Positions 295 to 21,494 of a stretch of DNA of 64,000 bases are shown in pieces. The notes beneath the pieces were generated by a model. The model had not been told where the DNA came from and searched no databases. It worked only from the letters and a program-made list of their open reading frames with translations. Positions within the stretch are counted from its first letter, which is position 1. The number at the start of each line of letters is the position of its first letter. Location of the stretch: assembly GCA_965223865.1 (NCBI GenBank), contig OZ245020.1:256001-320000 (forward strand), given 5' to 3'. A program made the position numbers and the translations under genes. The DNA comes from Nitrosarchaeum sp. (GTDB lineage Archaea > Thermoproteota > Nitrososphaeria > Nitrososphaerales > Nitrosopumilaceae).

Positions 295-362
295 GACATA
301 CTATAGTGAGCGTTTTATAAGAAAAAACAGGCACCTAAAATACGAACAGCTAGGAATGATTT

Positions 363-3007: not shown

Positions 3008-3380
3008 TTTTTATCATATGCAAGATTTGATTACACTATAAAGAAAATTTTTGCTAACAACTCTTAAATTACTTTTTATATGTAGAATGAAATGCCAATA
3101 AATCTACAATTGTTTACCAGTAGACTTTGGTTAATGTTCAATCATATCTTTTACGATTACTTCATTTTTTGAGTTTTCATTGTAATATTTTGATTATGAT
3201 GAAACGTATTTGTTAATTATAAATAGATTTAACATACGATAAAACGTCAGAAAAAGTTTTTTTGAGAATATACAAAAGATTTTGAGAAAAGAGTTTCCCA
3301 AAGATTTGAAGTTAGATAAATGTGGAAAATGAATTTTAACAGTTACTGATGTTAGATTACTAACATTTATTTTATAAAAT

Positions 3381-3794: not shown

Positions 3795-3962
3795 AATATT
3801 AAGTATGGAGAATTTTGTACTAAATATCACTAGTGGCACAAAATCAATAACCAATTAAGTTTTACAAAAGATGTACATTCTATTAGAGTTATTCAAAACA
3901 ATTGATGTCGTACCGTTGTATAACATTCATTATTACACATTGGTGTTACTAAAAGTTAAAAA

Positions 3963-4727
3963 CTATGCGGGAGTCATTTCTTCATATTCAACACTGTTAC
4001 CATTATCATCGTTATTATTTTCTAGGGGTTCAGCAGATATGGATGAGTTTAAGACATTTTTTGATATCTCAACTAAATCTTTGAATGATGTGAGGATGTG
4101 GTTTATGCTAGTAGTTAAATTAACACTATAGTTATTGACTAATGTCAATTTTGTATTATATGATTTTTCGACTTGTGAAAAGTCTTTATCTATCTTTTCT
4201 TTTTTACTAAGACAAAAACTTGTAAATTCTTCTGCTGCTTTTAGTTCAGATTCTAATCGTTCTACTGTGGTAGTCTTTCTAATTAGAGCAGGTTTTAGAG
4301 CTTCTATAGCAATTTCTGCCTCATTTGTATCAAGATTTGAAGCAATATTTGTGATATTCTCTATAGCTTGTTTTATTATATTCAGATCACTTTTTGCCAT
4401 TTCAGCTTTTTTCTGTAAATCTCTTTTTTCTATTACTGCTTTTTCTGATTCAATTGATGCTTTTCTTTTTTCATAACTTTTTTCTTGTAAGATTGATTGT
4501 AATTCATCAACTTCAGTTTTATTTTTTAATACAATATTTCTGGATTTGGTAATAGCCTGTAGTACATCATCAATACTAGCCTTAAAATAAATCTCCAATC
4601 GTTTTTCATCTGAAATTAACTGTATTTCTTTAAGGGTATTTTCAATTTCAGATAGTTGAAAATCATTAAAACGTCTATTCTCTCCTATATCATTTGATTT
4701 TGTCTCACTTACTGTATACAATTCCAC
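3963..4727 (-). CDS. Hypothetical long coiled-coil protein
   Basis: 254-aa E/K/L-rich all-helical ORF, co-oriented with the upstream regulator and GT2. Confidence 0.7.
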   Translation of the reverse strand: MELYTVSETKSNDIGENRRFNDFQLSEIENTLKEIQLISDEKRLEIYFKASIDDVLQAITKSRNIVLKNKTEVDELQSILQEKSYEKRKASIESEKAVIEKRDLQKKAEMAKSDLNIIKQAIENITNIASNLDTNEAEIAIEALKPALIRKTTTVERLESELKAAEEFTSFCLSKKEKIDKDFSQVEKSYNTKLTLVNNYSVNLTTSINHILTSFKDLVEISKNVLNSSISAEPLENNNDDNGNSVEYEEMTPA

Positions 4728-4888
4728 ATGTCTATCAATTTAACATTAATATTCTTTATTATTGTGCTCAACACGATAAGAACATTTATGTGCAACAAAA
4801 CATTTGGTTTTATCATATTCACATTTGCATCCACAATTTCTTTATGTTCAAAAGTAAAATATTATCTATTGAAACAAAATGTTGGGCT

Positions 4889-5911
4889 TTATATCTTGTA
4901 TAATCTACTTTCTGCCCAATTTGCTTGATTAACTTCAAATCTACTGCTACAGGAATTACATTCCAGTTTATGATCTAGAGTAGAGAATTTATCATTACAA
5001 TTATTGCACACATAATAATTTTCTAGCCTTTGGTAATCAACTCCAAGTATTTTTAGTTCTTTACTGCACTTAGAACATTTACCATTTACATAGTTTTTAG
5101 CAGGTTCTACGTTGCCACATTCATGATGTTCAATTAATGGTTCTTTAGAAAAAATTTTACTACTACAGGTAGGACAAGAAAAAGTAGATACTAGATTAGA
5201 AGACGAACATCGATTACATATAGGTTCATTACATGTTCCAATATTCTTTATAGTACTTGAGGTTTCCAATTCTCTTATATTTTTGTCAATGATATTTTTT
5301 TCAATTTTTAACATATCTGAAATACGATTATTACTTAGCAATCCATATGTCAATAATGAAATTATTTTTTCTTTGGTATCAGGTTGTTGTTGAGGTTTGT
5401 TAGTGATGATATTCTTTTCTTGTTTTATTTTTTCAATTACTTCTTTTAGTCTATCTAAGTTTAGTGGTTTCTGAACATAATCATAAATTCCCATGTTAAG
5501 TAGTTCTATTATCCTTTTGTCTGATTTTTCTAATGCAGATAGCAATATTATTATCGCTCGTGGATATATTTCAAAAAGCTTTGATACCATCTTCTTTGGT
5601 TGAATATCACCTAAGCTGTCACCTAACACTATAGATACAATTTTTTGTTCTTCTTTTATCAAATTTTCATAATATGCCAATCCACCATTTCCGGTACTTG
5701 CCAGATGTATCTCTTTAAAACCCAGAGTAGAAAAATACTTTTGAAGGGTAGATGAAACTGAAATACTATCCTCAATTATTAAAATCGAGTCAATACTAAA
5801 AATATTATCTTCAAGTGCATTAAGCTGAGCAATATCAATACTCTTTTTTTTTAACTGCTCAACAATGTCGATATCTTCTTGTTGTCTTTTAATAGGTGGT
5901 ATGCTTTCCAT
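4889..5911 (-). CDS. Response regulator: receiver + wHTH + TackOD1-like multi-CxxC output domain
   Basis: ILIIED, IILLSA and YVQKP receiver motifs; C-terminal CxxC clusters with EHHECG and C..C.KELKILGVDY, resembling thaumarchaeal output domain 1. Confidence 0.8.
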   Translation of the reverse strand: MESIPPIKRQQEDIDIVEQLKKKSIDIAQLNALEDNIFSIDSILIIEDSISVSSTLQKYFSTLGFKEIHLASTGNGGLAYYENLIKEEQKIVSIVLGDSLGDIQPKKMVSKLFEIYPRAIIILLSALEKSDKRIIELLNMGIYDYVQKPLNLDRLKEVIEKIKQEKNIITNKPQQQPDTKEKIISLLTYGLLSNNRISDMLKIEKNIIDKNIRELETSSTIKNIGTCNEPICNRCSSSNLVSTFSCPTCSSKIFSKEPLIEHHECGNVEPAKNYVNGKCSKCSKELKILGVDYQRLENYYVCNNCNDKFSTLDHKLECNSCSSRFEVNQANWAESRLYKI

Positions 5912-6016
5912 GATAATTCATTATTTCCTAATTTTTTTATGTTGTGTTACTCATTATCTTCACTCTTTTAATGTTTTATATGCATTGTCAGTAATAGCAA
6001 AAAATTTTGCAAAAAA

Positions 6017-8407
6017 CTAGCTCCATTTAATGCCCTTTTTGAATACTGCTTTTAGATTAGCCTTAAATATTATAAATTTCAGTAATGGCCTATAACATAA
6101 TGCCATTATTGGCACCAACCAAACAAGATGATAATTTTTCTTAGCTGAAAGAATATTTGAGAAGAAAAATGTAGCAAATTCCATCATAATGAACAAAAGT
6201 GAAGTTAAGATTATAACATTAGACAAGCTATGAACATCAATAACACCAAATATTGAGAAGAATACCAGTCCAATGACGTACGCAACAAAGAGGATGTTCA
6301 AAACAAAATCAAACACAAACATGCTTAGTTTAGTAGGACGAGTTCTGGGTGAATTTCTTTTTGTTATGCCATGTTTTCTTAAGGTAGTATACTCTCCAAA
6401 GGCCCATCTTTCTCGTTGTTTAATCCATGCGCTTAGATTACTTGGACAATAAGTCCATGCTATTGCATCACCTAAAAATTGGATATTATTTTTACCACTA
6501 TCTTTGCGTTTAAGCATTTTTAGTGTCAGATCAAAGTCCTCAGTTATTGTATCTTTATCATACTTTCCTACACTTTCAAAGACATTTCTTCTAAAAACTC
6601 CAAAGGCTCCAGATATGATTGCAACTATAGTTGTAAATCCTAAAGTAGAGAATCTTCGCCCCAACTCCATTGCAACAAGGTATTCGTAGGATTGAAGTTT
6701 TGTAAGTAAATTATGAACAGGTCTTCCATCAGAGCCAGGATCCCCCCCAGCTATTCTTACATTTCCAGCAACAGCCATAACAGCATCGTCCTTAAAACGA
6801 TTAACAATTCGATGAAGTGACTGTGGTTCTATTACAGTGTCTCCATCCATACATAAGATAAGATCTCCTGTGGCATATACAGAACCATAATTCAGTGCTG
6901 TTGCCTTTGAACCACTAGCTTGATTGCGATGGATTAGTTTTATTAAGCCTTGATCACTAAATTTTTTAGCAATAAGATACGTATTATCTGTAGATCCATC
7001 GTCAATCACAATAATTTCTTTGTTGCTATATTCTGTTCCCAGTACAGAATTAATAGAATTTTCTAATCCTGCCTCCTCATTATGAGCAGGAATCATAATT
7101 GTAATTTTTGGGTGATAAAAAGAATCATGTAATATTTGATGTTTTGTTCTAGACGCAAAGGTTACAATAATTTTTGATATCAAAATGATATAATCAAGAG
7201 TAAGTGGAAATATCAACATTAAAATTAAGATCAGTGGGTCCCATATGAAAAATAGTTGCAACCAATCAACAAATAGTTCTGGTGATGTGTCAACAAATTG
7301 ATAAGGAATCCTCAAATTTGTGGTTGCTAAAACAGCTCCATTGTTTTTGTCTTCTATATGTAGTGTATTATAATCTGAAAGAGGTTGTTGTAAGGTATCA
7401 GTATTGATCTCCACACATAAAGTTCGGTTTCCTCTTTTGTCATTAAGCTGACCTACCTCAATTCTGTCTGAAAAATTATTTCCACTTAGAAAAATATATG
7501 GATCAGGGTTGGACACCATCTTAGTTGAACCATCAAGTCCTTCAGTCAGTTTTATGTAATCATTTTTGTCATATGATAGATTAAATGTAGATACTCTTAC
7601 CTGAAGAAAGTTTTCAAATACGGCAGTTTCAACTCGCCCTGTAGATATTCCTTTTTGACCTTCTATGTATCCAATCTTACGTGATTTATCATAGAAATCC
7701 ACAGAACAAATATCCATACCAGGTGACATATTAGACAAAGTTATACGTCCTGATGTGATGGGTGAAGCATCAGTGAAAGGTATTGCATAAAATAATTGTT
7801 CAGGAAAGATTGAAAGCCACTCATTAAATAAATTTGGATTTTGGAGTTTAATTTTTACAATTGTTTTTTGATTATCATCTCTAATTTCAATTAATCTAAT
7901 CTCATTTAGAGAAATATTGTTTGGAATTTTATGTTCACTATAATCGGAATGTGTTCTTAGTTTTCCTTCGAGTGGGATTTCTCGATAATCATTAGTGATG
8001 ATAAAGGTTGAAAGATTACTTGATTCATTTATCTGGTTATCTGAAATTATAAACTGTTCTAGTTTTAAAAACAGTTTTCCATTATCTGATAAAATTTTAG
8101 CTATACCACTTGCTTGATTATTATCTACACCTTTAAGAAATCCTAGTCTATGAATATTTTCATTGTAAGTAAATTCAGACAATTCATCTTTGTATTTATT
8201 TTCATAGTATATTCTAGAACTTTCATCCATATTTCCAAAAATTTCATATTGTTCTCTAGCTGATTTTTCAATTATTTTTGAGAAAGATAGTATATCATTA
8301 CTGTTATTACTTAGTGTTTGAGCTACACTGTTTTGTAATGGGTAAATTGCTAAAACAATCAACATGCACACAAATCCTGTAAAAGTTATTTTGACAAATA
8401 AATTCAA
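6017..8407 (-). CDS. Processive GT2 glycosyltransferase (PgaC/IcaA/cellulose-synthase-like) with large N-terminal extracytoplasmic region
   Basis: IPAHNEE, DDGSTD, MDGD (DxD), TED and QRERW (QxxRW) motifs; signal peptide, one TM before the catalytic domain, TM helices after it. Confidence 0.9.
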   Translation of the reverse strand: MNLFVKITFTGFVCMLIVLAIYPLQNSVAQTLSNNSNDILSFSKIIEKSAREQYEIFGNMDESSRIYYENKYKDELSEFTYNENIHRLGFLKGVDNNQASGIAKILSDNGKLFLKLEQFIISDNQINESSNLSTFIITNDYREIPLEGKLRTHSDYSEHKIPNNISLNEIRLIEIRDDNQKTIVKIKLQNPNLFNEWLSIFPEQLFYAIPFTDASPITSGRITLSNMSPGMDICSVDFYDKSRKIGYIEGQKGISTGRVETAVFENFLQVRVSTFNLSYDKNDYIKLTEGLDGSTKMVSNPDPYIFLSGNNFSDRIEVGQLNDKRGNRTLCVEINTDTLQQPLSDYNTLHIEDKNNGAVLATTNLRIPYQFVDTSPELFVDWLQLFFIWDPLILILMLIFPLTLDYIILISKIIVTFASRTKHQILHDSFYHPKITIMIPAHNEEAGLENSINSVLGTEYSNKEIIVIDDGSTDNTYLIAKKFSDQGLIKLIHRNQASGSKATALNYGSVYATGDLILCMDGDTVIEPQSLHRIVNRFKDDAVMAVAGNVRIAGGDPGSDGRPVHNLLTKLQSYEYLVAMELGRRFSTLGFTTIVAIISGAFGVFRRNVFESVGKYDKDTITEDFDLTLKMLKRKDSGKNNIQFLGDAIAWTYCPSNLSAWIKQRERWAFGEYTTLRKHGITKRNSPRTRPTKLSMFVFDFVLNILFVAYVIGLVFFSIFGVIDVHSLSNVIILTSLLFIMMEFATFFFSNILSAKKNYHLVWLVPIMALCYRPLLKFIIFKANLKAVFKKGIKWS

Positions 8408-8539
8408 TATTTGTGGTTCAAAAAGCTTGTTTATTAATTAATTAGGAAATATATAGGTAGTTCTATTTGAAAGTAATAATTTTACTTAACTATAGGTCAA
8501 TAATATTTTTAAGGCGATATTAGGGACTAAAACTAACGA

Positions 8540-9622
8540 TTGAAATTTTTAAAAGAATTTGTATTTTTGATTATGATAGTAGGTTTAGCAACTCCTGCGG
8601 GGGATGTATCTGCATTTATGTTAGGTGATGCAGATCCTTTCCTCAATAACATATGGTTGGAGCCAAGATATTTAGTACCGGGAGACATAGTTAGCATAAA
8701 CTCTTCAATATACAACCTAGGTACACAATCAACAAATTCTGTAACGGATGTAGTTACAATTGGTTATTTTTTGGATGGAGATTTAATTAAAATTGATATA
8801 CTCCCAGATATTGTTCCCGGAGAAAATAACGGAGTAAAGATTACAACAGGTCCCATATGGACTGCAATTGATGGAATTCACACTGTTACCGTAATTTTAA
8901 ATTATCATGATACTTTATCACACTTAACTGACAATCTTGAAAATAACATAATGCAAAAAGTATACTATATTGGTGATTGGGAGAATCCAAATCCACGTAT
9001 ATCAGCTGAATTATTTCAAGAATATAACCGAGATAGAGATAAGCAAAACATACAGATTACCGGTAAAGTTGATTTGCCACTAGATGTACTAAAATCAAAT
9101 CCTAAAGTCATCATACAATTTGGGGATGACGACAGTTATAATAATATAGATAACTTCAAACAACATTATACCGTTCCAATAGATCTAGATACGAGATCTT
9201 TTTATTTCAAAGAAACTCATCAATATTTTCAAACCACAATCCCCATTACTATATCCTATTCTACTGACAGAGGTGAAAGTTATGAATACAAATTACAAAC
9301 ATACCCAATCAAACTAAACGAGAATAACTCAGCTTGGATCTTACAGGAATCTACAGATAGTTTTAGATCTCAGAAATTTCTTGTGGTCATATATGATGAA
9401 TCTTATAATTTGATCAAGAAGGTTGAGACATATAATATACCTGACATAACAACAGAAAATACTGTCAATAGTTATGTTTCTGTAATACTACCAGGGGATC
9501 AACTGTATAATATGGAAGTGTATTCAGAAAGAGGAGATTTGATTTATGCATCATCAAAGTTCTTACAGGCGAATAATATAGTGATAGATGATCTAAATCA
9601 AAAATGGAGAGAATCTAATTGA
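8540..9622 (+). CDS. Secreted protein with CARDB/Ig-like N-terminal domain
   Basis: Signal peptide; PGDIVSINSSIYNLG...GIHTVTVILN...DNLENN pattern of CARDB. Confidence 0.7.
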   Translation: MKFLKEFVFLIMIVGLATPAGDVSAFMLGDADPFLNNIWLEPRYLVPGDIVSINSSIYNLGTQSTNSVTDVVTIGYFLDGDLIKIDILPDIVPGENNGVKITTGPIWTAIDGIHTVTVILNYHDTLSHLTDNLENNIMQKVYYIGDWENPNPRISAELFQEYNRDRDKQNIQITGKVDLPLDVLKSNPKVIIQFGDDDSYNNIDNFKQHYTVPIDLDTRSFYFKETHQYFQTTIPITISYSTDRGESYEYKLQTYPIKLNENNSAWILQESTDSFRSQKFLVVIYDESYNLIKKVETYNIPDITTENTVNSYVSVILPGDQLYNMEVYSERGDLIYASSKFLQANNIVIDDLNQKWRESN

Positions 9623-10626
9623 GGACATCTGCTGTATTATCATCATCATTGTTGATGGTCATTATGCTTATTATGATTACACCGATTATTTCAACAGACA
9701 TTAAAAGCGCTTATGGTAGTATAACGGCTAGTAAAAATTTTTGTGGGCAATTTTCAACCCATCCTGAGTGTACAGGATGGAGAAAGATTCCTGTTATGGA
9801 TAATTTTTGGTTTTGTGAATATATAGATCTGCCATCAGTATGTAAAAATCCACCAAACCCTCAAAAAGAAATATCCCCATTAGAAGCAGACTATTGTTGC
9901 CGAATTTACGAAGATAATGATGAGACATTAAATGACCTATCTTCGCTTTATTATGATCTTGTTTTTGAGGATACAAGCAAAAAAGGAAGAGAGTTACCAG
10001 AAGCATATCCAATTAATGAGTTAGTAGTATGGACTGAAAAGGATCATTACAAGTTTAGAGATAGGGTTAATGTATATGGCAAATTTGATTTTGGAGATCC
10101 TGTTATTCAGAAAGCAAACAGGTCAGTAGATATTTTATTTAATGGAAACAAAGTAGTACCAAACTTAACTGTAGAACCAAATGGATGGTTTTCAGGATAT
10201 TTTTATATATCTGATCCTCGCTTTTATTACACCGGGATAAGTAGAATTGATGTTACATATTTTCATTCACCAACAGTGTATGATCAAGATATACGTGCAG
10301 TAGCTTCATACAAATTTACCACAGGTGGAATTCAGGAACCAAAAGATCCATTCTCAATTAAAATCAGTTTAGATAGTGAATCTGGTTTAAAAAAAAGAAT
10401 ATCCTATGAGATAGATTCTAAAAGTGCATTATCACTGCACCAAAAAACTAACAGTGTAACAAGGTTAATTAATCCTGACGGAATTGTTTTTGCGATGCCT
10501 TATATTTCAATGGATAATTTAGAACACTACATAGATGAAATTTCTAATTTTCAGACTGGAACTTACACTATTACAATGACATTAGGTGACTTTAACATTA
10601 GTAAAAGCTTTGAGAAGAAAAATTAA
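9619..10626 (+). CDS. Secreted hypothetical protein, Cys-rich N-terminus plus Ig-like region
   Basis: Signal peptide; six Cys near the N-terminus; VWTEKDHYKFRDRVNVYG Ig-like start; overlaps the upstream stop by 4 bp. Confidence 0.7.
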   Translation: MRTSAVLSSSLLMVIMLIMITPIISTDIKSAYGSITASKNFCGQFSTHPECTGWRKIPVMDNFWFCEYIDLPSVCKNPPNPQKEISPLEADYCCRIYEDNDETLNDLSSLYYDLVFEDTSKKGRELPEAYPINELVVWTEKDHYKFRDRVNVYGKFDFGDPVIQKANRSVDILFNGNKVVPNLTVEPNGWFSGYFYISDPRFYYTGISRIDVTYFHSPTVYDQDIRAVASYKFTTGGIQEPKDPFSIKISLDSESGLKKRISYEIDSKSALSLHQKTNSVTRLINPDGIVFAMPYISMDNLEHYIDEISNFQTGTYTITMTLGDFNISKSFEKKN

Positions 10627-10707
10627 AAATAGATAAACGATTATCACTTGTAAATATTTTCCAACATTTGTAAAGAACGTTATCATCAAAAAAGCTGAGG
10701 TAGAACA

Positions 10708-10980
10708 CTAGTTTTTTAGCACCTCTACTATTACCTCGTACGTAATTTCATCATCTGTGATGTGATGTTTTGCAATAGAATTTTCCTTAAATTTTTTATT
10801 TGTATGAACAATTCTGTATTTTAAACCGTTTAAAAGAATTGTTTGGTTTTCAAGTTTGTCAGGTAATACGTTATTTGTTTTGTCTTTGATTATTTGTATC
10901 TCATTTAGGGATCTAATCTTTGCCAGAGGTTTTCTTTTTGGGTTTTTGTCCCAAAAATCATAAAATATAATTCTAGACAT
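10708..10980 (-). CDS. Small hypothetical protein (90 aa)
   Basis: ATG-started ORF with plausible composition; no recognised motif. Confidence 0.55.
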   Translation of the reverse strand: MSRIIFYDFWDKNPKRKPLAKIRSLNEIQIIKDKTNNVLPDKLENQTILLNGLKYRIVHTNKKFKENSIAKHHITDDEITYEVIVEVLKN

Positions 10981-11582
10981 GGATTTCTTAATTTATTATT
11001 TGGTTTATATGATTTCAAGTTTATTGTGCTATTTAAATAATCAATTGCTTTTTCATCTGTTTATTTTTTAGTTTTCCTGAGTGTATGTTTCTTCATTTTA
11101 TTTTTGTTAAATCTTAATTGGTTGATCAATTTTTTCTACATGTTATGCTGATGCCGGTCTCTGTTCTCTTCTTTTTCATCAAAATAGTCCATTATCTGCC
11201 ATGATCATAACCTGTACCCTATGCAAAAAGCACTACCACTAGACGTTTGCAGGTTATGGATGATGATTCTTGGCATCATAGAAAGTAATGCTAGCAGGTC
11301 AAGGAAATAAGAATTGACGAAAAAGATTGGAATTAGACTAGACAACCAATTGTTGTTATTTCATGAAATTAGTTTTAATTTACTTGTCTGATTTGATAAT
11401 TATAGTATATAAATGGACTATTTTTTGAAAATAACGGCGATGACTTGTTCATTAAATTCAACTTGGCTTGCTAAGCCATAATTTAAACAGTTTTTTTAAA
11501 ATGATAATTTCCAGTTACAATAAAGATCATTTGAGAGGGCTTCATAAAATATCTTAAATTCTACTGTTTCCAATCAGTTTCT

Positions 11583-12902
11583 GTGAGAAAGGAGATCTTT
11601 TCTGTTTTGGTTATTACGATTTTACTTTCATCTGCAATCACTCCGTTGAATATTTTGCCTGATGCCGAGGCCTTAAAATCTCAGGGCGTGGCAAGTGGCA
11701 ACTATGGTTCAGCCACAAGAGACAAGGTTTGTGGGGATAGATTATGTTCTGAAATTGAGAAGGAAGAAAAAGAATCCAAATCTGAAAAAACATCCAAAGG
11801 AACCAATAAGGATAAAGAAAAGAAAAAGAAAATTCCGCAAGAACCACAACCACAAGTTGGCCAAGTATGCACATTAGAGCACATGCCAGTATGCGGTGTT
11901 GACAACAAGACCTATGGGAATATGTGCATGCTAGAGGTTTCAGGTACAGAACTTGCATATGAGGGAGAATGCAAAAAAACAATTTCTTCTCCAATCTCTG
12001 AAGAAGTTTTACAATATACGAAAGAACCACCAATTATTGACACTCAAAAAGGATATTTTGTTACAGAGATTGCAGATGGTCTTTATTGGTTGATGGATGG
12101 AACCTACCAGACAATGTTTATGACTACGGGACAAGGAGTCATTGCAGTTGATGCCCCACAATCATTAGGTAAAAAATATCTTCAAGCAATTTCAGATGTT
12201 ACTGATGAACCTGTCACCCATGTGATATACAGTCATCCTCACACAGATCATATCGGTGCAGCTGGAATGATATTTCCTGAAGATGCCACAGTAATTGCAC
12301 AAAAACAGGCAGCAGGCCATTTAGTGATGAAAAACGATCCAAATAGACCTGCTCCAACCATATCCTTTGATGAACAGTACACACTGAAAGTTGGAAACCA
12401 GACCCTTGAGCTATACCATATAGGCAACTTTCACTCCAAGGGAGATATCATAATTTATGCACCAGAACAAAAGATTGCAATGATTGTAGACTTTTTCCAT
12501 CCCGAAGCAGCACCATTCAAAAACTTTGGGATAACTCAAGACATGGGAGTACATCTTGCAACACATGATGTTCTGTTAGAGATGTTTGATGATGACGTGT
12601 TGTTTGTTTCAGGGCATGAGTCAATACTTGGAACAAAACAACACATTCAAGAGTACAAGCAGTTTACAAATGACGTTCTAAACAATGCGTATGCGGCATT
12701 TGGCAAGGTCAACTTTGATGAGATTGTAGAGAAATATGGTTCTAACGGAAGCAGTTATGTTGTATTTAATGGGTATATGGATGCACTCTCAAATTCCTGT
12801 GTGAGTGATACGGTTGAGCAGTGGAGCGGAAAGATAGATGGCTTGGAGGTCTTTTTAGAAGACAATTGTATGACCATGGTAATTTATGCAATGGTTGACT
12901 AG
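11583..12902 (+). CDS. Secreted Kazal-domain plus metallo-beta-lactamase-fold hydrolase
   Basis: Signal peptide; Kazal-like CTLEHMPVCGVDNKTYGNMC...YEGEC; MBL HPHTDH, H(SKGD), D and GH metal ligands. Confidence 0.85.
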   Translation: MRKEIFSVLVITILLSSAITPLNILPDAEALKSQGVASGNYGSATRDKVCGDRLCSEIEKEEKESKSEKTSKGTNKDKEKKKKIPQEPQPQVGQVCTLEHMPVCGVDNKTYGNMCMLEVSGTELAYEGECKKTISSPISEEVLQYTKEPPIIDTQKGYFVTEIADGLYWLMDGTYQTMFMTTGQGVIAVDAPQSLGKKYLQAISDVTDEPVTHVIYSHPHTDHIGAAGMIFPEDATVIAQKQAAGHLVMKNDPNRPAPTISFDEQYTLKVGNQTLELYHIGNFHSKGDIIIYAPEQKIAMIVDFFHPEAAPFKNFGITQDMGVHLATHDVLLEMFDDDVLFVSGHESILGTKQHIQEYKQFTNDVLNNAYAAFGKVNFDEIVEKYGSNGSSYVVFNGYMDALSNSCVSDTVEQWSGKIDGLEVFLEDNCMTMVIYAMVD

Positions 12903-12904
12903 AC

Positions 12905-12961
12905 AATAGTTCACATTAGATAGAATAAAATAGTTCACATTAGATAGAATAAAACAGTTCA
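12905..12961 (+). repeat. Intergenic 24-bp tandem repeat (aatagttcacattagatagaataa), about 2.3 copies
   Basis: Exact copies at 12905-12928 and 12929-12952 plus a partial third. Confidence 0.9.
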
Positions 12962-13079
12962 ATTCAGATATTCTTAACAAATACTTGGTAGTGGTCTAAT
13001 TTGTTAGAAACACTAGAAAAGAGATTTACTTTTTTGATCTGGATAAAATCTTTTAAATTGAGAACCATGCCTCTTAGCA

Positions 13080-14411
13080 ATGAATAGAACTCTAAAATAC
13101 TTGGCAATACTGGCTTTAGTACCACTGTTTACTGCAGGTATGACTTCAAACTACTTTACTGAGGCAGATGCTACCACCAAAAGTCAAGGCTCCAATGCGC
13201 CTGGGCGGGTGGGAGCTAATTCATACGGTTCTGCAAATAACGGAATAGTCTGCGGAGATGTTCTGTGTAAAGACTATCCTGGTGGCAGGGCAGGTTGGGA
13301 AGAAGATCAAAAGGCTCAATCTAGTACCGTAACACCACGACCTGTTCCACAAGAACGTGAGGTACCTGTAACACAAGAAACTGAAGAAGAAAAAACAGTT
13401 GCAAGTACAACAACAGTACGAGATACTTCAGAATCTAAGGATATGGGCTCAGTGCTCAAGATGTCAAGAGCAAACATTCCTGCCGAAATTCCTATGCACA
13501 TGGGATACTACAATGGTGGTGAGGTTTACTATATCATCACCGATTCCAGTGATCCAACACACGCAGATCTAATCACTGAAAATCAGGGTTGGAAAGTAGA
13601 GTTAGCTCCCCTGTTAGCAAATGCTCCGGCAGAGGCGCTATCAAAAACATACATGTTTACAAACGGCATTGAAGGCGACGGAGTACATGGATTCCAAGGA
13701 GAGGTGTTTACTAGCACACCTGCACAACCAGAAATCTACAGTGCATTGACTTCTCATGTTCACGTCACATGGAATGAGGGCAAACAACCAAGATTACTTG
13801 ATTCTGAAGAGATGGTAATGGCAGCTGCAGACAATGGCAATGTCACACTTACTGATCTTAAAGTAGTTTTGAACATGCCACAAATTGTTTGGCCAGAAGG
13901 TCAGATGATTGTAAAAGAAGACAAGACATTAACTGACGAAACACCCTATGGAGGAGGACAAGTACTTGATATCAATACGGAAGAAAAGACGGTAACTTTC
14001 ATTGCACATAGAGGCTGGGGTCCAGACGGTAGAACCATCTACTATATCGTAACTGATGCAACACCAAGCGGTCCAGCTGGAATGATGGGAGTAGTGGACG
14101 CGCCAACATCTGCCAGTCTGATTGCAAATTCAGCAGCGGTTGATCTGTTTCAGTTCAAAGATGGCCTTGCAGGCACGGGTCCTTTGGGATTTCAACCAGG
14201 CATTGCAGCTGGAGCACCAGGTGATGAAAACTATAGTCCAATGTGGAGAATCTTCATGATAGGATGGGCTGATCCTGCAAATGCTCAACTGCTTGAAACC
14301 ATAGATGACATCAATGCATACAAAGAAGCTGGTCTAATAGACATAGGTATTGCAAGGCCAATGGATAGCGATCATATCGTAAACTGTCCATTCATCGATC
14401 CGTTCCAATAA
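13080..14411 (+). CDS. Secreted protein with two tandem copies of an uncharacterised domain (DUF7482-like)
   Basis: Signal peptide; duplicated G..G..YYI.TD / F.NG..G.G..GFQ / P....YS motifs; terminal IVNCP. Confidence 0.75.
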   Translation: MNRTLKYLAILALVPLFTAGMTSNYFTEADATTKSQGSNAPGRVGANSYGSANNGIVCGDVLCKDYPGGRAGWEEDQKAQSSTVTPRPVPQEREVPVTQETEEEKTVASTTTVRDTSESKDMGSVLKMSRANIPAEIPMHMGYYNGGEVYYIITDSSDPTHADLITENQGWKVELAPLLANAPAEALSKTYMFTNGIEGDGVHGFQGEVFTSTPAQPEIYSALTSHVHVTWNEGKQPRLLDSEEMVMAAADNGNVTLTDLKVVLNMPQIVWPEGQMIVKEDKTLTDETPYGGGQVLDINTEEKTVTFIAHRGWGPDGRTIYYIVTDATPSGPAGMMGVVDAPTSASLIANSAAVDLFQFKDGLAGTGPLGFQPGIAAGAPGDENYSPMWRIFMIGWADPANAQLLETIDDINAYKEAGLIDIGIARPMDSDHIVNCPFIDPFQ

Positions 14412-14427
14412 GCAGGAACACAAATCA

Positions 14428-14450
14428 TTTTTTTATTTTTTAGGTTTTTT
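14428..14450 (+). terminator. Oligo-T archaeal terminator after 13080..14411
   Basis: T-runs (tttttttattttttaggtttttt) 17 nt after the stop codon. Confidence 0.55.
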
Positions 14451-14653
14451 AAATTAACTACGTGTATGCGTGTTATGACTTCACAACACATACACGAATG
14501 AACAATTGTCTAGACAACATTAGAAGCAATCTAGCAAGATGCATGACAGACTATACAATTTAAGTAAATCTCCAAAATCAATCTCAATAATGTTCAGAAA
14601 GAAATAGAAGAAGAACTAGAAATATTCAACACATGATATTTTCCTAAAACCTG

Positions 14654-15298
14654 TCAATATTCAGTTGAATACATTGACTTGCCTGCACTTGCTGGAACAG
14701 AAGGGAACTTGTCACCTATCTGTGTCTCTGCAACCGCCGCCGCCTCACTTAATATAGCATCAGTCTCCTGTGATGACATTCCAGAATCCCCAAAGGAGTA
14801 ATCATCACCTAGTGTACCAGGCATCATGTCTCCAAGCATGTTTCCCATAGATTCTAGCTCTTGGCTTGCCTGAGGCATTATGCTGTTCATTGCAGGAACG
14901 ACTGCCTTCATCGTGTGTACTGCCGGTTGCATAGACACAATCGCATCTCCTATAGTGCTTACAGTAGATAGTCTTAACTGTGTCCTGTCTACTGCAGTTC
15001 TCATGTTTCCTACCATCTTGTTTGTCTTTCTTATTTGTGCCAGCTCGTTTGCCAGGATTTTGCTGGTACGCATATCCTTGTTTTTTTGAGCTTCTACAAT
15101 TCTATGAAATAATTTGTCATCCTTTTGATTTAACTGACTAGAAGTACTGTCTAATTTTGATATTGGTCTGTTCAGACCTCTTATTGCATGCTCCACACGT
15201 GGTTTGAGTGGTGCCTCTTTTTTGAACATGCCTGAAATCTTATCTCCAAGTCCTTCTGTGGGAGGTCTATTCCATGCTTGTCCAAAATTGGCCATCAT
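14654..15298 (-). CDS. cdvB: ESCRT-III/Snf7 (CdvB-family) paralog A; start likely MMANFGQAW
   Basis: Aligns over its whole length with 62777..63427 (LKPR, LANELAQIRK, QLRLSTV..GDA.V, AVAE.QIGDKFPSVP). Confidence 0.9.
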   Translation of the reverse strand: MMANFGQAWNRPPTEGLGDKISGMFKKEAPLKPRVEHAIRGLNRPISKLDSTSSQLNQKDDKLFHRIVEAQKNKDMRTSKILANELAQIRKTNKMVGNMRTAVDRTQLRLSTVSTIGDAIVSMQPAVHTMKAVVPAMNSIMPQASQELESMGNMLGDMMPGTLGDDYSFGDSGMSSQETDAILSEAAAVAETQIGDKFPSVPASAGKSMYSTEY

Positions 15299-15389
15299 AA
15301 TATGATATGGAAAATTCTGATTTAGCAAACCAAGTTGAATTTAATGGACAAGTTTGATCGTTTTTCTAACTAAATTCTATCTGGTTTGC

Positions 15390-16058
15390 TCAGTCATATA
15401 CTGCCGTAGTTTTGGCATTGTTGTCTGATTCTGTATTTACTTCAGAGGGCACATCTGGAAGTCTCTCTTCTAGGTCTTTTCCTAGCATGGCATTTGCCTC
15501 TTGCAGTATGGAATCCATCTCTACTCCTGACAATGCATTTACATCAAACTGATCTGTGTTGCTTTCACCTAACGTACCAGTCATCATCTCACCTAACATT
15601 TCACTCATTTGATTTAGTTCTCCGTCTGACTCAGGCATAATTCTATCAAGGGATGGTTTTAGTGAACTTACAATGGATGCCGCAGGTTCCATAGCTATCA
15701 TTGCCTCACCAAAGTCTTCCACGGTTGTCAGTCTTAGCTTGATCTTCTCCAGTGCAAGCCTTGCGTTTTCTATCATCTTTTCTTGCTTGCGCATCTCTGC
15801 AAGTTCGGTGGCAAGGATTGATGCCTTTTGCATCTCATTATTTTTTTGTGCATCTATAATCTTCTCAAATACTGACTGGTTTTGCTGTTGCATCTTTTGG
15901 TACATGGAATCTAGTTTGGTCAAAGGTATATTTAGCTGCTTTATTGCCTCTATGATTCTTGGCTTTAGTGGGGCTTCCTTGCGCATCAGATGACGCAGTT
16001 TTTGGCTTGTAGAGTGTGATGAGGAACGTTGCCAGTTCTTTTCAAAAAAATGCCCCAT
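15390..16058 (-). CDS. cdvB: ESCRT-III/Snf7 (CdvB-family) paralog B
   Basis: APLKPRI, LATELAEMRK, ARLALEKIKLRLTTV.DFGEAM and C-terminal LPDVPSE. Confidence 0.9.
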   Translation of the reverse strand: MGHFFEKNWQRSSSHSTSQKLRHLMRKEAPLKPRIIEAIKQLNIPLTKLDSMYQKMQQQNQSVFEKIIDAQKNNEMQKASILATELAEMRKQEKMIENARLALEKIKLRLTTVEDFGEAMIAMEPAASIVSSLKPSLDRIMPESDGELNQMSEMLGEMMTGTLGESNTDQFDVNALSGVEMDSILQEANAMLGKDLEERLPDVPSEVNTESDNNAKTTAVYD

Positions 16059-16366
16059 GTCATGCGTCAGAGATTATCTTTTAAGTCACGCAAGTAAACC
16101 AAATTTGATTTAGTTGATCGTTATGTTGATTTTCAGTATCCAGAAATTTAGTATTCTCGTAATCGTCAATTTTATATCCTCATATGTCCCTCATGGTGTG
16201 AGTTTCAATACATGCATGCAACAAGTACTATCCTACTATCTTCTTAGCCACATTCTATTTTGACCAGGTGTTCTTTTCGATCCTGTTGTCTTTTGTGACT
16301 TTTTCTTATTTAATTGTAGATAATTTTCATTATGTATTGATTTATTCATGGATTCAATTGGGAATC

Positions 16367-16618
16367 ATGGGATTTAGAACCCATAATTCATAGAAAACCA
16401 AAATCTAGAACTACGTCAAAAACAAAAACTGTATCAAAATCAGCTTCGCCTACAAAAAAGTGATTAAAACAAGGAAAAAATCAACTGCTTCAAAAACAAA
16501 AAATCCAGCTGCTACCAGAAAAAAATCAACAACTAGCGACAAAAGACGTGCTACTTCAAAAACAAAACCAAAGACAACAAGCAGAAAAACCAATTCTAAG
16601 AACACAAGACGAAGATAG
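16367..16618 (+). pseudogene. Frameshifted Lys/Arg/Ser/Thr-rich histone-H1-like basic protein (intact 52-aa GTG frame 16460..16618)
   Basis: RKPKSRTTSKTKTVSKSASPTKK continues in another frame at an A-run as VIKTRKKSTASKTKNPAATRKKSTTSDKRRATSKTKPKTTSRKTNSKNTRRR*. Confidence 0.6.
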
Positions 16619-16849
16619 ATTCTGGTTAAATCTATTTTTTCTATATGTGTCTGAAACTCATTCAGATCAATATTACTCAGTTAATACTTGAATAAGATTG
16701 GACAGTGGCATGTCAAAAGCAAACAAATCCACAACGTTAGTTGTCAAAACCACTGCCCTAGGCATCTATTATGTCATTTAAAGATCGATCTGAATTTCAG
16801 GTATAGGTCATGCTTAGATTCATAACATGCTGATTTTGCTTTCTGTCAT

Positions 16850-17068
16850 ATGGTCTGTAAGGGAACCTGCACTAGGTACAAGGCAGAAAAACCTGGCCAA
16901 TTTGGCAGTAGGTATGAACACGGGCAGAAACGATGCTCAATATGCGATGTCTTTGTGAATTGGGATGGAAAAAAGTGCCCATGTTGTGGAATGACCTTGA
17001 GAACAAGACCAAAAGGGACCCAAACAAGGGCATATCTTGCAGAGATAAGAAATGTCAAGAGAATCTAA
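16850..17068 (+). CDS. Small Cys-rich zinc-binding protein (thaumarchaeal family)
   Basis: CKGTC...RY..GQKRCSIC...CPCCG..LRTRP pattern. Confidence 0.8.
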   Translation: MVCKGTCTRYKAEKPGQFGSRYEHGQKRCSICDVFVNWDGKKCPCCGMTLRTRPKGTQTRAYLAEIRNVKRI

Positions 17069-17532
17069 TGTAATGCTTAAATGCAAATTTTGCAAATCAA
17101 ATCACTAAAATGAAGTTTGGTTGTTAACCAGTCGATTGGTCAAGGTGGAATTGACGCCATTGATGTATTTGATCTTTGTATTTACCATGTTCTTTAGTTG
17201 CTCATGTGGAATGCTTGTACCAAAACATCATAGATTCCTAGAACATGTATTACAACTGAAATATACGGTTGCTTTTGAGCTCTTTTATTACACCATTTCT
17301 TTTTGTCTCATTACATGTTAACAAAACAAACAATATGTTATCATTTTTTTGACTTTGATGAGCCTGTACTATGTTTCTAAACAGTTAAGAGATTTTCTAC
17401 ATACTATCATTGGATTACTTATATGCTGTACAACATAAATTGTGATAAAATTACTTTTTGCATTTTTCGTTTGAAATTAATAGATACTTAAAACCTATGA
17501 ATTATTAATTATGGCATAAGACTTGACGATTT

Positions 17533-17720
17533 GTGAATGAATCTATTATCAGAGATTTGGAAGAAAAAGACCTTGAAAATGGCTTTCTTGAATCCTTAAA
17601 ATCATTGACAACGGTCGGAGACATTGACCCTTCTGATGCAATACAGAGATTCAGGGAAATCAGTTCAGACTCAAACTATGTAATCAAAGTAGCCGAAGTT
17701 GACGGAAAAATTGTAGGTGC
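17533..17720 (+). pseudogene. 5' fragment of GNAT acetyltransferase (glucosamine-6-phosphate N-acetyltransferase-like)
   Basis: IIRDLEEKDLENGFLESL...VAEVDGKIVG, after which similarity stops; the rest of the ORF is antisense integrase. Confidence 0.8.
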
Positions 17721-18081
17721 CCTGTCACTGCCAGTCTTTTTTGCATGTGGGATTATCTTGGATATCTTTGACCAGTTTATTCCATCTTCAACGTCATTCA
17801 TCTCAAAAAAGTGCTTTAGTGCAGCTCTTGTCTGCTGTAGGGTAGAACCGCTAACCTTGGACTTGCGCTCCTCAATGTAATCTATAATCATGTGCTGAAC
17901 AGCCTCTTGGGATTCTTTTTTGCCTTTTGAAGTAACTTGTCAGCTGTCATGTCATTGTGAAATTCCAAGAACTGCACAAGCTTTTTACAGTACGACTCTT
18001 TTGTGATTCTGAATGAAATCCCTTTAGGAAGTTCCTGACTGACTTGCTGTTGATGTTTTCTTGGATCTCTTGTGGAATCAT
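17712..18081 (-). pseudogene. Truncated, doubly frameshifted tyrosine integrase (N-terminal part only)
   Basis: Stitched frames give SVRNFLKG..TKESYCKKLVQFLEF..MTADKLL..AVQHMIIDYIEE..ALKHFFEMND...INWSKISK...DRAPT; no catalytic domain; 57 bp downstream of tRNA-Leu. Confidence 0.8.
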
Positions 18082-18138
18082 TTTAGAACAATATTTCTCC
18101 ACATGTCAAAATATTAAGTATTTCCACTCTATATGTAG

Positions 18139-18223
18139 TGCGGGAGGTGGGATTTGAACCCACGAACTCCTAGAAGATAAGGATCTGAACCTTACGCCGT
18201 TGACCAGGCTGGGCGACTCCCGC
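18139..18223 (-). tRNA. tRNA-Leu (CAG)
   Basis: GCGGGAG/CTCCCGC acceptor stem, TAAGG-TTCAGAT-CCTTA anticodon arm, long variable arm, GGTTCAAATCC T-arm; CCA not encoded. Confidence 0.97.
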
Positions 18224-18306
18224 AATCTGGAATTTTGAAATCTAGAATAAGTTTCTTTATTATACTGTTTTAGTGTCAAACTAACAAAAAGGTAAATGTT
18301 TGAAAA

Positions 18307-18468
18307 ATGGAATTTAGCGAAGTATATTGTAATAATTGCAAAAAAGTTCTTGGAAGATACAACATAAAATTTTACACAGAAGATAAAATCAGTGAGTTGA
18401 TGAAAACAAGTCATGTAACTCATGTTAGAAATGGGCATCATGTAATAATTCGAAAAATCGAAAAATAA
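18307..18468 (+). CDS. 53-aa CxxC/His zinc-binding microprotein
   Basis: Manual translation MEFSEVYCNNCKKVLGRYN...SHVTHVRNGHHVIIRK. Confidence 0.75.
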   Translation: MEFSEVYCNNCKKVLGRYNIKFYTEDKISELMKTSHVTHVRNGHHVIIRKIEK

Positions 18469-18528
18469 CGATCTTAAGAGCATTTAATTGGTTTCTTCAA
18501 ATAATTTACAAATATTTTTTTAATTTAT

Positions 18529-19608
18529 TTAATCAAGTGATTTTTGAAATTCATCTAAGAGACTTTTTTGATGTTTATTGAGTTTTTTTGGTATATTTAC
18601 AACAATTCGAACATATTGGTCGCCTCTTCCTCTAGAATTTAGATGAGGAACGCCTTTTCCTTTTAGTTTTATTATAGTATTAGGTTGGCTTCCAGATTCC
18701 ACCTTGATTTTTTCAGTACCATCTAGAGTTGGAACTACAATCTCACGTCCTAAAGCAGCATCAACCATGGAGACATCTTGATCATAAAAGATGTCCCTCT
18801 CATCTCTCTTGAATTGAGGATGAGGCTGAACTCTAATTCTTACAATTAAATCTCCATTTACTCCTCCAGGGATTTCATTTCCTTCATTTGGAATTGTGTA
18901 ATCTCCTGAATCTACACCTGCTGGAATATCAAATGATATTTTTTTAGTGCCTTTTTTCTTTGTTTTTCCTTTACATTCACTGCAAGGAGTCTCTATAATA
19001 GAGCCTTGGCCTTGACAAGTTGAACAAGGCTCAACTGTAACAAAAGATGCAAATCCCATACTTCGGCTTTTACGAACTTGACCTTGGCCATTACAAGCTG
19101 AACAAGTATTCTTGTTTGTGCCTGGTTTACATCCTGAACCATTACATCCATCACACTTGATCTCTTTTTGTAGTTCAATTTCCATTTTTTTGCCATGTAA
19201 AACATCTTCAAGGGTAATTGAGGTTTCATAAAGAATATCAGAACCACGTTGTTGTCTGGAACTAAATCCTCCTCGTCCAAAAATTGATTCAAAAATGGAG
19301 TCAAATCCGCCACCACCTCTTCCAAATAAATCACTAAAGTCACCTCTTGCTCCCTGGAAAATATCATCACTGCTGTATCTTCCGTCTACTCCTTGATGAC
19401 CATATTGATCATACACTTTACGTTTTTCAGGATCAGATAGAACACCATATGCTTCAGAAATTTCTTTGAAATGCTCACCTGCCTCAGCTGATTGATTACG
19501 ATCTGGATGAAATTTTAAAGCTAGTTTTCTGTATTGTTTTTTGATTTCATCCGAAGAGCTTGTTTTTGAAACTCCTAAAACTTCATAGTAATCACGTTTT
19601 GCTGACAT
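18529..19608 (-). CDS. dnaJ: Chaperone DnaJ
   Basis: J-domain with HPD, G/F region, CxxCxGxG repeats. Confidence 0.98.
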
Positions 19609-19652
19609 TGATATCCCTTAATTATAATTGAAATAACGAGCTATTTGTAGAC

Positions 19653-21494
19653 TTAGTTACTTTTTGTTTCATCACTAGATGATTGAGAGGTGTTTTGTTG
19701 TCCTTCTCCTGCACTTTGTTGTCCTTCAGCTCCTGGTGGAGGAGCAGCATTTTTGTAAAGTTCAGTTGTAACTTCATTGACAATTGCCTTTAGAGAATCA
19801 AGTTTTGATTTTAATTCTTCAGGTTCCTTGTCTAGAAACTCTTTGACTTCTTTTACTGAATCAGTGATTTTGATTCCTTGTTCTTGGGAAATTTTATCTT
19901 TAAGGTTGTGATTTACTAATTTCTCAGTTGTGTAGATGTAGCTTTCAGCTTCATTTCTAAGATCAATTTTTTCCTTCTTCTTTTTATCCTCCTCAGAGAA
20001 TTTTTCTGCATCTTCTTTTAGTTTTTCAATTTCATCTTTAGATAATTTTGAGGTCGACTCTATGGTAATTTTTGCTTCTTTTTGTGTACCAAGATCCTTT
20101 GCAGTTACATTGATAATTCCATTTGCATCAATATCGAATTTAACTTCAATTTGAGGAATTCCTCGTGGTGCTGGTGGTAAATCAGTGAGGTTAAAGCTTC
20201 CTAGAGAAACATTGTCTGTAGCCATTGGTCGTTCACCTTGAACAACATGTATGGTTACTGCCGTTTGATTATCAGCAGCAGTTGTGAACACCTTACTTTT
20301 TGAAGTTGGAATAGTAGTATTTCTTTCAATTAATGGCTCCCTTACGCCACCTAGGGTTTCTATTCCTAAAGTTAATGGTGTTACATCTAATAATACAATA
20401 TCACTAGCAACATCTCCGGCAATAATTCCTGCCTGAATTGCTGCACCCATTGCTACTGCTTCCATAGGATCGACTCCAGATTCTGGTTCTTTTCCTACAA
20501 CTTCACCAACAAATTTTTTGACTAGTGGAATTCTTGTTGGACCACCAACCATGACAATTTTATTAATATCCGATGTTGATAGTTTTGCATCTTGTATGGC
20601 TTTGTCAATTGAGGATCTACATTTCTCTACAATTGGTCCAATAAGTTCATCTAATTTTGCTCGAGTAACTCTTAATTCAAGATTCTTTGCACCTGAAGAA
20701 TCCTGAGCAATGAATGGAAGGTTAATGTCAGTTTCCATTACTGTTGATAGTTCAATTTTTGCTTTTTCTGCTGCTTCTCTAATTCTTGTCATAGCTGTGT
20801 TATCTTGTGAAAGGTCAATTCCTTCCTTTTTCTTGAATTCGTCATTAATGTAATCAATTACAGCTTTATCCATATCAGTTCCACCCAATTGTGTATCACC
20901 AGAAGTACTCATTACTTCAAAGACACCACCACCCATTTCCATAATAGTAACATCTAATGTTCCACCACCAAAATCAAAGACAAGAATTTTCATATCTTGT
21001 TTTGCCTTGTCTAATCCAAATGCAAGTGATGCTGCAGTTGGTTCATTGATTATTCTTACTACATCAAGTCCGGCAATAGTACCAGCATCTTTTGTTGCTT
21101 GACGTTGGTTATCATCAAAATATGCAGGAACAGTAATCACTGCTTTTTCTACAGTTTCGCCTACGAAAGCTTCTGCATCTTTCTTTATTTTCTGAAGAAT
21201 AAAAGCAGAAATTTGTTGAGGTTTGTATTCTTTATCTTGAATTTTGAATGTATGTTCAGAGCCCATCTTTCGTTTTGCAGCTACAATTGTATTATCAGGA
21301 TTAGTTACTGCTTGTCTTCGGGCAGGCTCACCAACTAAAAGATCGCCATCTTTTGAGAATGCTACAACTGAAGGAAATGCCTTTCCTCCTACTGTTGCGC
21401 CTTCAGCTGCAGGAATTATGGTTGGTTTACCACCCATCATTACTGCAGCAGCCGAGTTACTCGTTCCTAAATCGATTCCTATTACTTTAGCCAT
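19653..21494 (-). CDS. dnaK: Chaperone DnaK (Hsp70)
   Basis: [15 protein letters not shown] and DFGGGTLD signatures. Confidence 0.99.

Follow-up and report, generated by a model that had tools for sequence, protein, structure and literature searches.

A rare, linked pair of accessory ESCRT-III genes in a tRNA-Leu island of a Nitrosopumilaceae genome

The core CdvB paralogs of Thaumarchaeota form a three-member family, described for Nitrosopumilus maritimus and present in essentially all genomes. Here we describe two further members of the ESCRT-III/CdvB family, paralogs A and B, encoded in tandem within a 64,000-nucleotide stretch of DNA (C1:256001-320000; the window) from the 2.01-Mb genome of an ammonia-oxidising archaeon of the Nitrosopumilaceae, 99.98% complete (the host, G000). 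G-numbers denote genomes and L-numbers the loci compared; P1, P4, P5, P6, A and B are the CdvB paralogs of G000, with P4, P5 and P6 as the core set. A and B resemble the core proteins in their Snf7 core, their length (213-222 amino acids, aa), their N- and C-terminal motifs and the lack of a winged helix. In contrast to the core set, they fall outside the universal clades, are linked as a pair, reside in inserted DNA and belong to types found in few genomes.

The best-matching solved structures and NCBIfam model for A and B come from the Sulfolobales proteins CdvB1 and CdvB2 (ESCRT-III-1 and ESCRT-III-2; CdvB2 filaments 9s97-9s99), with an alignment that spans the full length and includes the proline motif. 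According to PMC10017037, Sulfolobus paralogs act as composite polymers that are disassembled by Vps4, and another study (bioRxiv 10.1101/2021.02.09.430445) describes outward vesicle budding driven by Sulfolobus ESCRT-III and Vps4 besides division. CdvB1 and CdvB2 are core chromosomal division genes, whereas A and B are island cargo and not their orthologs (130-132 bits vs an equivalog cut-off of 350); likewise, the ESCRT-dependent vesicles set a precedent for budding, but one by chromosomal paralogs. Eukaryotic IST1-CHMP1B offers only an analogy, that of two ESCRT-III subunits in one filament. Its structures were lower Foldseek matches of the B model (E 0.1 or weaker; IST1 alone, 9e-3 to 2e-2), and no specific relatedness is evident.

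For the surrounding DNA, the closest described systems are the cryptic integrated elements of Thaumarchaeota, which target tRNA 3′ ends, have a median attachment site (att) of 17 bp, range from 2.6 to 98 kb and carry a tyrosine recombinase as their sole hallmark (PMC6563490). The G000 island is alike in its tRNA-Leu 3′ target, 17-nt att, length of 31.6 kb and recombinase remnant, and differs in that its integrase is decayed. The portion of PMC6563490 considered, its main text and four supplementary files, contains no ESCRT, Snf7, CdvB, Vps or "cell division" term; ESCRT-III cargo is thus not reported there.

An original prediction, made from the DNA sequence, described two full-length Snf7-family genes in tandem at 14654-16058 and a third copy at 62777. 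Both open reading frames (ORFs) were found at that place, intact and on the same strand, and the third copy proved real. The main features are as follows.

14654-15295 (-): paralog A, accessory ESCRT-III/CdvB-family gene, 213 aa, in the A subclade of the A/P1 clade
15390-16058 (-): paralog B, accessory ESCRT-III/CdvB-family gene, 222 aa, in its own rare, long-stemmed clade; C-terminus with ERLPDVPSE
14659-16133: conserved B-to-A cassette, aligned by blastn to G352 and G401; it spans A, B, their spacer and ~75 nt of DNA ahead of B
62777-63427 (-): P6, the "core copy" of the original prediction, one of the three universal CdvB paralogs

Both proteins belong to the Snf7 family: against Pfam PF03357, whose gathering cut-off is 27.3 bits, A scored 44.1 and B 31.8 bits over 167-170 of 171 profile positions. 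P6 scored 19.8 bits with this profile and 166.5 bits with the NCBIfam CdvB1/B2 model. By the longest-ORF rule, A would extend over 14654-15328 (-) from a TTG at 15328. However, its orthologs all begin with M-[A/T]-x-F-G-Q and A read from 15295 begins with MANFGQ, so the ATG at 15295 was taken as the likely true start. As the original prediction had stated, neither cdvA nor cdvC is nearby. Each is a single-copy gene, cdvA with its one match at C1:1633212-1633880 and cdvC (the only Vps4_C match, 397 aa) at C1:1126988-1128181, 855 kb from the pair; in the host CdvC, an N-terminal region precedes the AAA domain. The proposal that the pair borrows the host CdvC stood insofar as the sole CdvC is a distant host gene, which A and B would presumably use.

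In NCBIfam, the best model for both proteins was CdvB1/B2 (NF041005), with 132.1 bits for A and 129.7 for B. Because these scores are far under the equivalog cut-off of 350 bits, A and B are CdvB1/B2-like proteins rather than orthologs of CdvB1/B2. A profile of the B clade matched the solved CdvB2 structure 9s97 with E 1.1e-33 over 209 positions and CdvB 9s9j with E 3e-18. An AlphaFold2 model, built for B alone, has five helices (31-72, 76-112, 116-140, 142-163 and 181-199) and predicts the ESCRT-III arrangement of a long alpha1-alpha2 hairpin followed by shorter helices; the predicted local distance difference test score was 79-93 in the hairpin, with a mean of 59.7 for the model. The top 11 Foldseek matches of this model were all CdvB2 or CdvB of S. 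islandicus (all E <= 0.001). PHROGs gave nothing useful for A or B.

Three features are common to all six paralogs of G000: an aromatic motif at the N-terminus (F/W in MxNFxxxW; for B, MGHFFxxxW), the invariant sequence LRL-x-T within helix 2 and, towards the C-terminus, the motif hydrophobic-P-x-hydrophobic-P. Both prolines of the latter are invariant in the six paralogs and in 18 B-type and 34 A-type proteins. The tail of B had been likened to the MIM2 Vps4-binding motif of eukaryotic CHMP6. Its LPDVP does fit the strict MIM2 core, but so does IPDIP of P4, and with the prolines invariant throughout, the motif is a family-wide feature and not a distinctive one of B. With Ser as the middle residue, A, P1, P5 and P6 (FPSVP) fit MIM2 only loosely, the strict core being hydrophobic-P-[RKDE]-hydrophobic-P (PMC8970359). 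The reported lack of a winged helix was likewise true of both proteins: they end 12-21 residues past the proline motif, and their scores with the model for CdvB with a winged helix (NF041008, cut-off 370 bits) were 60 and 78 bits, respectively. This lack does not set the pair apart, however, because no thaumarchaeal CdvB has a winged helix, according to the literature (PMC8970359 and PMC10936438).

A genome-wide count with PF03357 gave six canonical CdvB paralogs in G000, and a hidden Markov model (HMM) of the six, in whose alignment the G004 ortholog (96% identical) stood in for P5 of G000, returned the same six places, all with E 1e-96 or better. With B as query, matches were detected in 41 of 41 related genomes, mostly three per genome. 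P4, P5 and P6 types had exactly one best match each in 11 of the 12 relatives with genes retrieved; in the twelfth, G001, P4 and P5 were present and a further match at a contig end was not retrieved. P6 was 100% identical in G004, 97.7-99.5% in G003, G005, G006 and G018, and 56.6-83.8% in six more distant genomes. Two trees were computed in quick IQ-TREE runs with support from the Shimodaira-Hasegawa-like approximate likelihood ratio test, one of 131 rows and one of 60 rows that left out G012, G017, two other long-branch rows and one truncated row. The same five clades were recovered in both:

P4: support 100 (131 rows) and 100 (60 rows)
P5: support 99 (131 rows) and 99 (60 rows)
P6: support 98 (131 rows) and 94 (60 rows)
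B: support 100 (131 rows) and 100 (60 rows), stem of about 1.0 changes per site
A/P1: support 100 (131 rows) and 100 (60 rows)

The A/P1 clade comprised a P1 subclade (support 97 and 99) and an A subclade (89 and 85), and the branching order among the five clades was not settled by either quick tree. The closest relative of A in its own genome belongs to the same clade:

C1:1716918-1717580: P1, nearest in-genome relative of A, 67% identity

In both trees, A and B were outside all three universal clades. Since P4, P5 and P6 are all located elsewhere in G000, the reading that A and B are sole orthologs of standard paralogs, merely relocated, fails, and the pair is additional to the core CdvB set, as originally proposed. 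On the other hand, the claim that A is close to the copy at 62777 was not supported: A is 67% identical to P1, 43% to P6 (45% by BLASTP) and 38% to B. Overall identity to the core paralogs P4, P5 and P6 was 30-43% for A and 33-40% for B.

Two other CdvB-like genes were noted. A seventh, weak Snf7-like ORF (C1:1125897-1126484 (+), E 2.7e-7 with the six-paralog HMM) is located directly upstream of cdvC, in agreement with the position that Makarova et al. give for an extra component (PMC10936438). In addition, the congener G003 has a different extra CdvB-like gene (L029, C1:702204-702845), 49% identical to P6 and outside the five clades, a sign that the genus contains additional kinds of accessory ESCRT-III.

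Occurrence of the accessory types was limited. Of 401 genomes of the family, three contained B-type genes (G000, G352 and G401; E <= 1e-55) and 11, from 2 of 27 genera, contained members of the A/P1 clade (E <= 1e-65). A set of 5.8 billion proteins yielded 19 other B clusters at 66-84% identity, and a scan of genome contigs with B alone returned nothing but two spurious bacterial fragments. At every B locus that could be inspected, A was directly downstream of B on the same strand: G000, G352 (identical in DNA to L068), G401, L066/L067, L069 and L070/L071. This arrangement, together with the 1.47-kb block of 77-78% identity described below, is in line with the two-subunit unit of the original prediction. 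A of G000 was 92% identical to the island copy of G006 and 81-84% identical to the cassette copies of G352 and G401. Four genomes (G001, G372, G407 and G006) had A without an intact B. In G006, A is accompanied by a B remnant that is 5′-truncated and internally deleted; in G407, compared with its relative G401, a 936-bp deletion kept A and left the last ~35 nt of B. B was therefore lost secondarily at least twice. Because A occurs alone and the inspected B loci all have A, B appears to depend on the presence of A and A not on that of B.

Several comparisons suggest that the cassette moves. By blastn, 14659-16133 aligned to G352 (78%) and 14667-16133 to G401 (77%), a block of ~1.47 kb, and nothing else within 26 kb of the window matched these loci. 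In G352, an IS4/5-family (insertion sequence) transposase, B and A form a 3.5-kb insert that is absent in five of five other genomes of that genus; it adjoins a separate 4.9-kb insert with an integrase fragment, directly after tRNA-Ser. In the congener G006, the cassette is in the same tRNA-Leu island as in G000 and is inverted relative to the tRNA and integrase. P1 is located in a 3.9-kb indel beside tRNA-Pro that is absent from G003 and G005. G376 contains two 2,914-bp copies of a unit, 99.97% identical and 410 kb apart (L078 9838-12751 and L079 9795-12707), with an A/P1-type ESCRT-III gene, an Lrp-like regulator, an 82-aa ORF and a 73-aa membrane ORF.

Some gene neighbors recur at these loci. 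An Lrp-like gene also adjoins P1 in G000, and ORFs like the two small ones of G376 (judged by eye from the first residues alone) adjoin cassettes in L066 and L070/L071. In G006 (L025 10412-16198), G001 (L082 10772-16492) and G407 (L083 3599-9390), the A-type gene adjoins a common block of four genes, encoding a protein of ~287 aa, a response regulator, a 591-aa histidine-kinase-like protein and a secreted protein of ~840 aa.

The tRNA-linked island of the original prediction was borne out and proved larger than had been thought. Its features in the window are the following.

1-18138: right-hand 18.1 kb of the 31.6-kb integrated island (C1:242502-274138)
11066-17708: strain-variable segment of 6.6 kb, with an MBL-Kazal protein, a DUF7482 protein, A, B and small ORFs
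17676-18102 (-): decayed tyrosine recombinase (integrase) in two fragments, 17947-18102 and 17676-17891
18138-18223 (-): tRNA-Leu(CAG), the integration target (ARAGORN); att core at 18139-18155

In the congeners G003 and G005, C1:242501 is joined directly to C1:274133; these empty sites mean that G000 carries a 31.6-kb insertion. It is bounded by a 17-nt direct repeat with one mismatch (C1:242485-242501 and C1:274139-274155) that corresponds to the 3′ end of tRNA-Leu. A search for att within the window gave no match because the distal copy, with the left end of the island, is located 13.5 kb upstream of it. In G006, whose island at the same site measures 10.4 kb, a 16-nt version of the att is present at the island's far end, and in G005 the distal att variant is found in the uninterrupted tRNA. 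This pattern is the classic signature of an element that gives the tRNA a new 3′ end. The integrase fragments of G000 are 97% identical over 61 aa to part of an intact 389-aa recombinase of G006, which adjoins the tRNA at the same site and matches Phage_int_SAM_1, Phage_integrase, the archaeal XerA model and a PHROG integrase; the homology of G000 with G004 and G006 ends at 17709. The closest relative, G004 (~91% DNA identity), matches 1740-11065 and 17709-20000 and has 1.6 kb of other sequence in between; it does not have the cassette, yet has all three core paralogs. Contigs of run X1 bridge 10981 to 17712 and 11191 to 17709 (with sides of 34 and 73 letters). The replacement in G004 and these bridging contigs show that the segment is polymorphic among close strains.

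Sequence conservation indicates that both genes have been maintained. By the Nei-Gojobori method, the ratio of nonsynonymous to synonymous substitutions (dN/dS) was 0.07-0.18 for A (15 pairs) and 0.08-0.21 for B (10 pairs), at dS 0.2-2.1, which implies long-term purifying selection. The 18 B-type proteins had 57 invariant columns, including both motif prolines, and a mean column identity of 79%.

A common heptamer was present upstream of both genes:

15355-15361 (-): ACGATCA box upstream of A, in the B-A spacer, starting 66 nt before the ATG and likewise followed by A/T-rich sequence
16115-16121 (-): ACGATCA box upstream of B, starting 63 nt before the ATG and followed by an A/T-rich, TATA-like stretch

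The box of B is kept upstream of B in G352 and G401, and that of A is kept upstream of A in G352, G401, G006 and G407 and absent upstream of the A-type gene of G001. P1 and P6 have related boxes (CTGATCA and TCGATCT) at a similar upstream distance, and no ACGATCA-related box was found upstream of cdvA, cdvC, P4 or P5. The heptamer occurs 84 times in G000, counting both strands; a search with the pattern CGATCANNTTG gave 0 matches and, as its spacing was ill chosen, is uninformative. The box in the spacer implies that A has its own promoter region. These data suggest separate but co-regulated promoters for A and B, and the ACGATCA box may serve to regulate some, but not all, of the ESCRT-III genes.

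Other cargo of the island includes an aminotransferase, an extra TATA-binding protein (TBP), a thermosome subunit, Hsp20, a ParE-like toxin-antitoxin pair, response regulators, a glycosyltransferase and secreted proteins. The part to the left of the window (L076, C1:240001-256000) contains the extra TBP, thermosome subunit and Hsp20, as well as a KTI12-like P-loop kinase and the ParE-like toxin with a DUF7557 partner. An N-terminal tag, SQG..YGS..CGDxLC, just after the signal peptide was detected in four ORFs only in the genome: the MBL-Kazal (11583-12902) and DUF7482 (13080-14411) proteins of the island and one chromosomal paralog of each (C1:741139 (-) and C1:1503085 (+)). We take this tag to be a putative motif for sorting or maturation. 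With one chromosomal paralog each, the tagged island proteins are duplicates of host secreted proteins; in addition, flanking genes are unrelated in the other genomes with the cassette. The idea that neighboring proteins are cargo of the ESCRT-III pair was thus not upheld. The very basic, Lys/Thr/Ser-rich 52-aa ORF at 16409-16618, the H1-like protein of the same proposal, had no family match and does not accompany the cassette at other loci; the stretch in which it lies contains three imperfect 17-nt repeats, with spacings of 74 and 66 nt.

A 72-aa zinc-ribbon protein (16850-17068 (+)) recurs near cassettes in G352, L071, G372 and G001, and in G004; it had no Pfam, PHROG or NCBIfam family match. 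Its gene was considered as an element marker and rejected, as 23 tblastn matches are spread over G000. Two repeat structures were also observed in the island part of the window. Three tandem 162-nt repeats (2249-2741, 95-100% identical) within a response-regulator ORF (1811-3007) encode three 54-aa acidic repeats, and a perfect 24-nt tandem duplication (12905-12952) lies right after the stop codon of the MBL-Kazal gene.

We consider it highly probable that the two genes constitute a functional cassette that moves horizontally, encodes accessory ESCRT-III subunits and is carried here as cargo in a decayed tRNA-Leu integrative element, and on balance we favor this as the best explanation of the locus as a whole. 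A and B would co-assemble into a heteropolymer at the cytoplasmic side of the membrane, with the main filament formed by A, the more widespread of the two. B, found only with A and repeatedly lost, would serve as a nucleating, capping or recruiting partner. The membrane would be reached without CdvA, via the conserved aromatic N-terminus, and the C-terminal proline motif would recruit the MIT domain of the single host CdvC/Vps4, which would remodel and recycle the polymer. With an own promoter region and a common ACGATCA box for each gene, A and B would probably be switched on together. Taken jointly, heteropolymer formation, CdvA-free targeting, recycling by CdvC and joint switching are evenly poised between right and wrong in our judgment. 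As the likeliest output we tentatively suggest outward budding, of extracellular vesicles or membrane-wrapped material, apart from the division ring of the core paralogs.

Several observations weigh against this reading. Because its integrase is decayed, the G000 element is probably no longer self-mobile. At the G401/G407 locus, a scan of a 20-kb stretch of G401 revealed no tRNA, and none of the ORFs in either genome's locus matched the integrase of G006; the cassette is therefore not always within a recognisable element. A viral contig collection was scanned with patterns drawn from B and from the alignments of the B and A types; these scans, which used few peptide patterns and had limited sensitivity, detected no A- or B-type relative. 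The linkage of B to A refers to inspectable loci, which do not include that of the B-type protein P0005, on a 1.83-Mb contig. Raised G+C content was ruled out as a mark of foreign origin because core P6 (0.424) shares the value of A (0.430) and B (0.417), the genome being at 0.341. Cassette copies also decay elsewhere, both genes being broken in L066/L067 and B a remnant in G006. Such copies indicate that the module is dispensable; taken with their conservation, A and B appear to be working yet dispensable genes. Finally, the island carries second copies of ordinary host genes (TBP, thermosome and Hsp20), and ESCRT-III may be one more duplicated host gene.

If so, A and B would be ordinary host paralogs, that is, lineage-specific duplicates of the division machinery that became specialised (for stress, growth phase or cell shape) and work alongside P4, P5 and P6 in the division ring. 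That they are located in a flexible region would then be incidental and would tell nothing about any role for the element. Their length and their N- and C-terminal motifs are those of the core paralogs, P1 and P6 share a related upstream box at similar distance, the two tagged secreted proteins are copies of chromosomal genes as well, the G401/G407 locus gave neither integrase match nor tRNA, and the roles of the N. maritimus CdvB paralogs are unresolved according to PMC8970359. However, the pair is very rare and patchy, and the cassette recurs with unrelated flanks, in association with an insertion sequence and an integrase, in inverted orientation and in near-identical duplicates; moreover, the closest relative has no pair and kept the core three. 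We therefore regard this explanation as rather unlikely. A role without any function at all, as recent duplicates that hitch-hike and decay, could account for the broken genes in L066/L067, the B remnant in G006 and the deletion of B in G407, but is very improbable in view of intact ORFs for both genes in G000, G352, G401, L069 and L071, the low dN/dS of both genes over considerable dS, and the mean column identity of the B-type proteins.

It is also conceivable, at a low level of likelihood, that the two subunits form an interference module that poisons or redirects host ESCRT-III or CdvC, by filament capping or CdvC titration, and so blocks budding viruses or rival elements (exclusion) or delays host division to the advantage of the element. 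The single host CdvC, the conserved CdvC-type motif on both A and B, the strict MIM2 core of B that most core paralogs do not have, the ParE-like toxin-antitoxin pair in the same island and a patchy, often lost distribution typical of conflict genes would all suit such a role. Yet no defense-family match was obtained (PHROGs gave only a weak, meaningless match, and no PADLOC search was made), the viral pattern scans revealed no virus link, and A and B seem to keep complete polymer-forming cores under purifying selection rather than truncated capping forms. A bolder version of the mobile-cassette reading, of similarly low probability, is that the cassette is an element-borne budding machine, a minimal ESCRT-III system of two subunits by which capsid-less, non-conjugative integrated elements in marine ammonia oxidisers would export themselves or host DNA in vesicles with the host CdvC as the only ATPase. 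If true, it would be the first mobile-element-encoded ESCRT-III system and would represent a vesicle-based route of gene transfer in Thaumarchaeota.

In this study, we report a rare, linked, mobile pair of ESCRT-III genes that forms two clades beyond the universal three; the protein family itself was known. Among the open-access papers searched, none described thaumarchaeal ESCRT-III encoded on an island or element. The individual roles of thaumarchaeal CdvB paralogs are an open question (PMC8970359), and Thaumarchaeota are hard to manipulate genetically. A strain-variable two-gene add-on provides a comparative handle, with near-isogenic genomes that have and do not have it (G000 vs G004 and G401 vs G407). 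The pair is small enough for reconstitution and separates accessory ESCRT-III functions from the essential division set. Even if it should merely be a duplicated host gene pair in a flexible island, it would correct paralog counts and nomenclature. It also hints that membrane-cutting proteins travel between strains as accessory cargo. If the cassette is mobile cargo that drives or blocks budding, ESCRT-III would join the cell-biology modules traded by archaeal mobile elements, and a role in budding would bear on the release of vesicles and the non-lytic release of viruses by abundant marine archaea.

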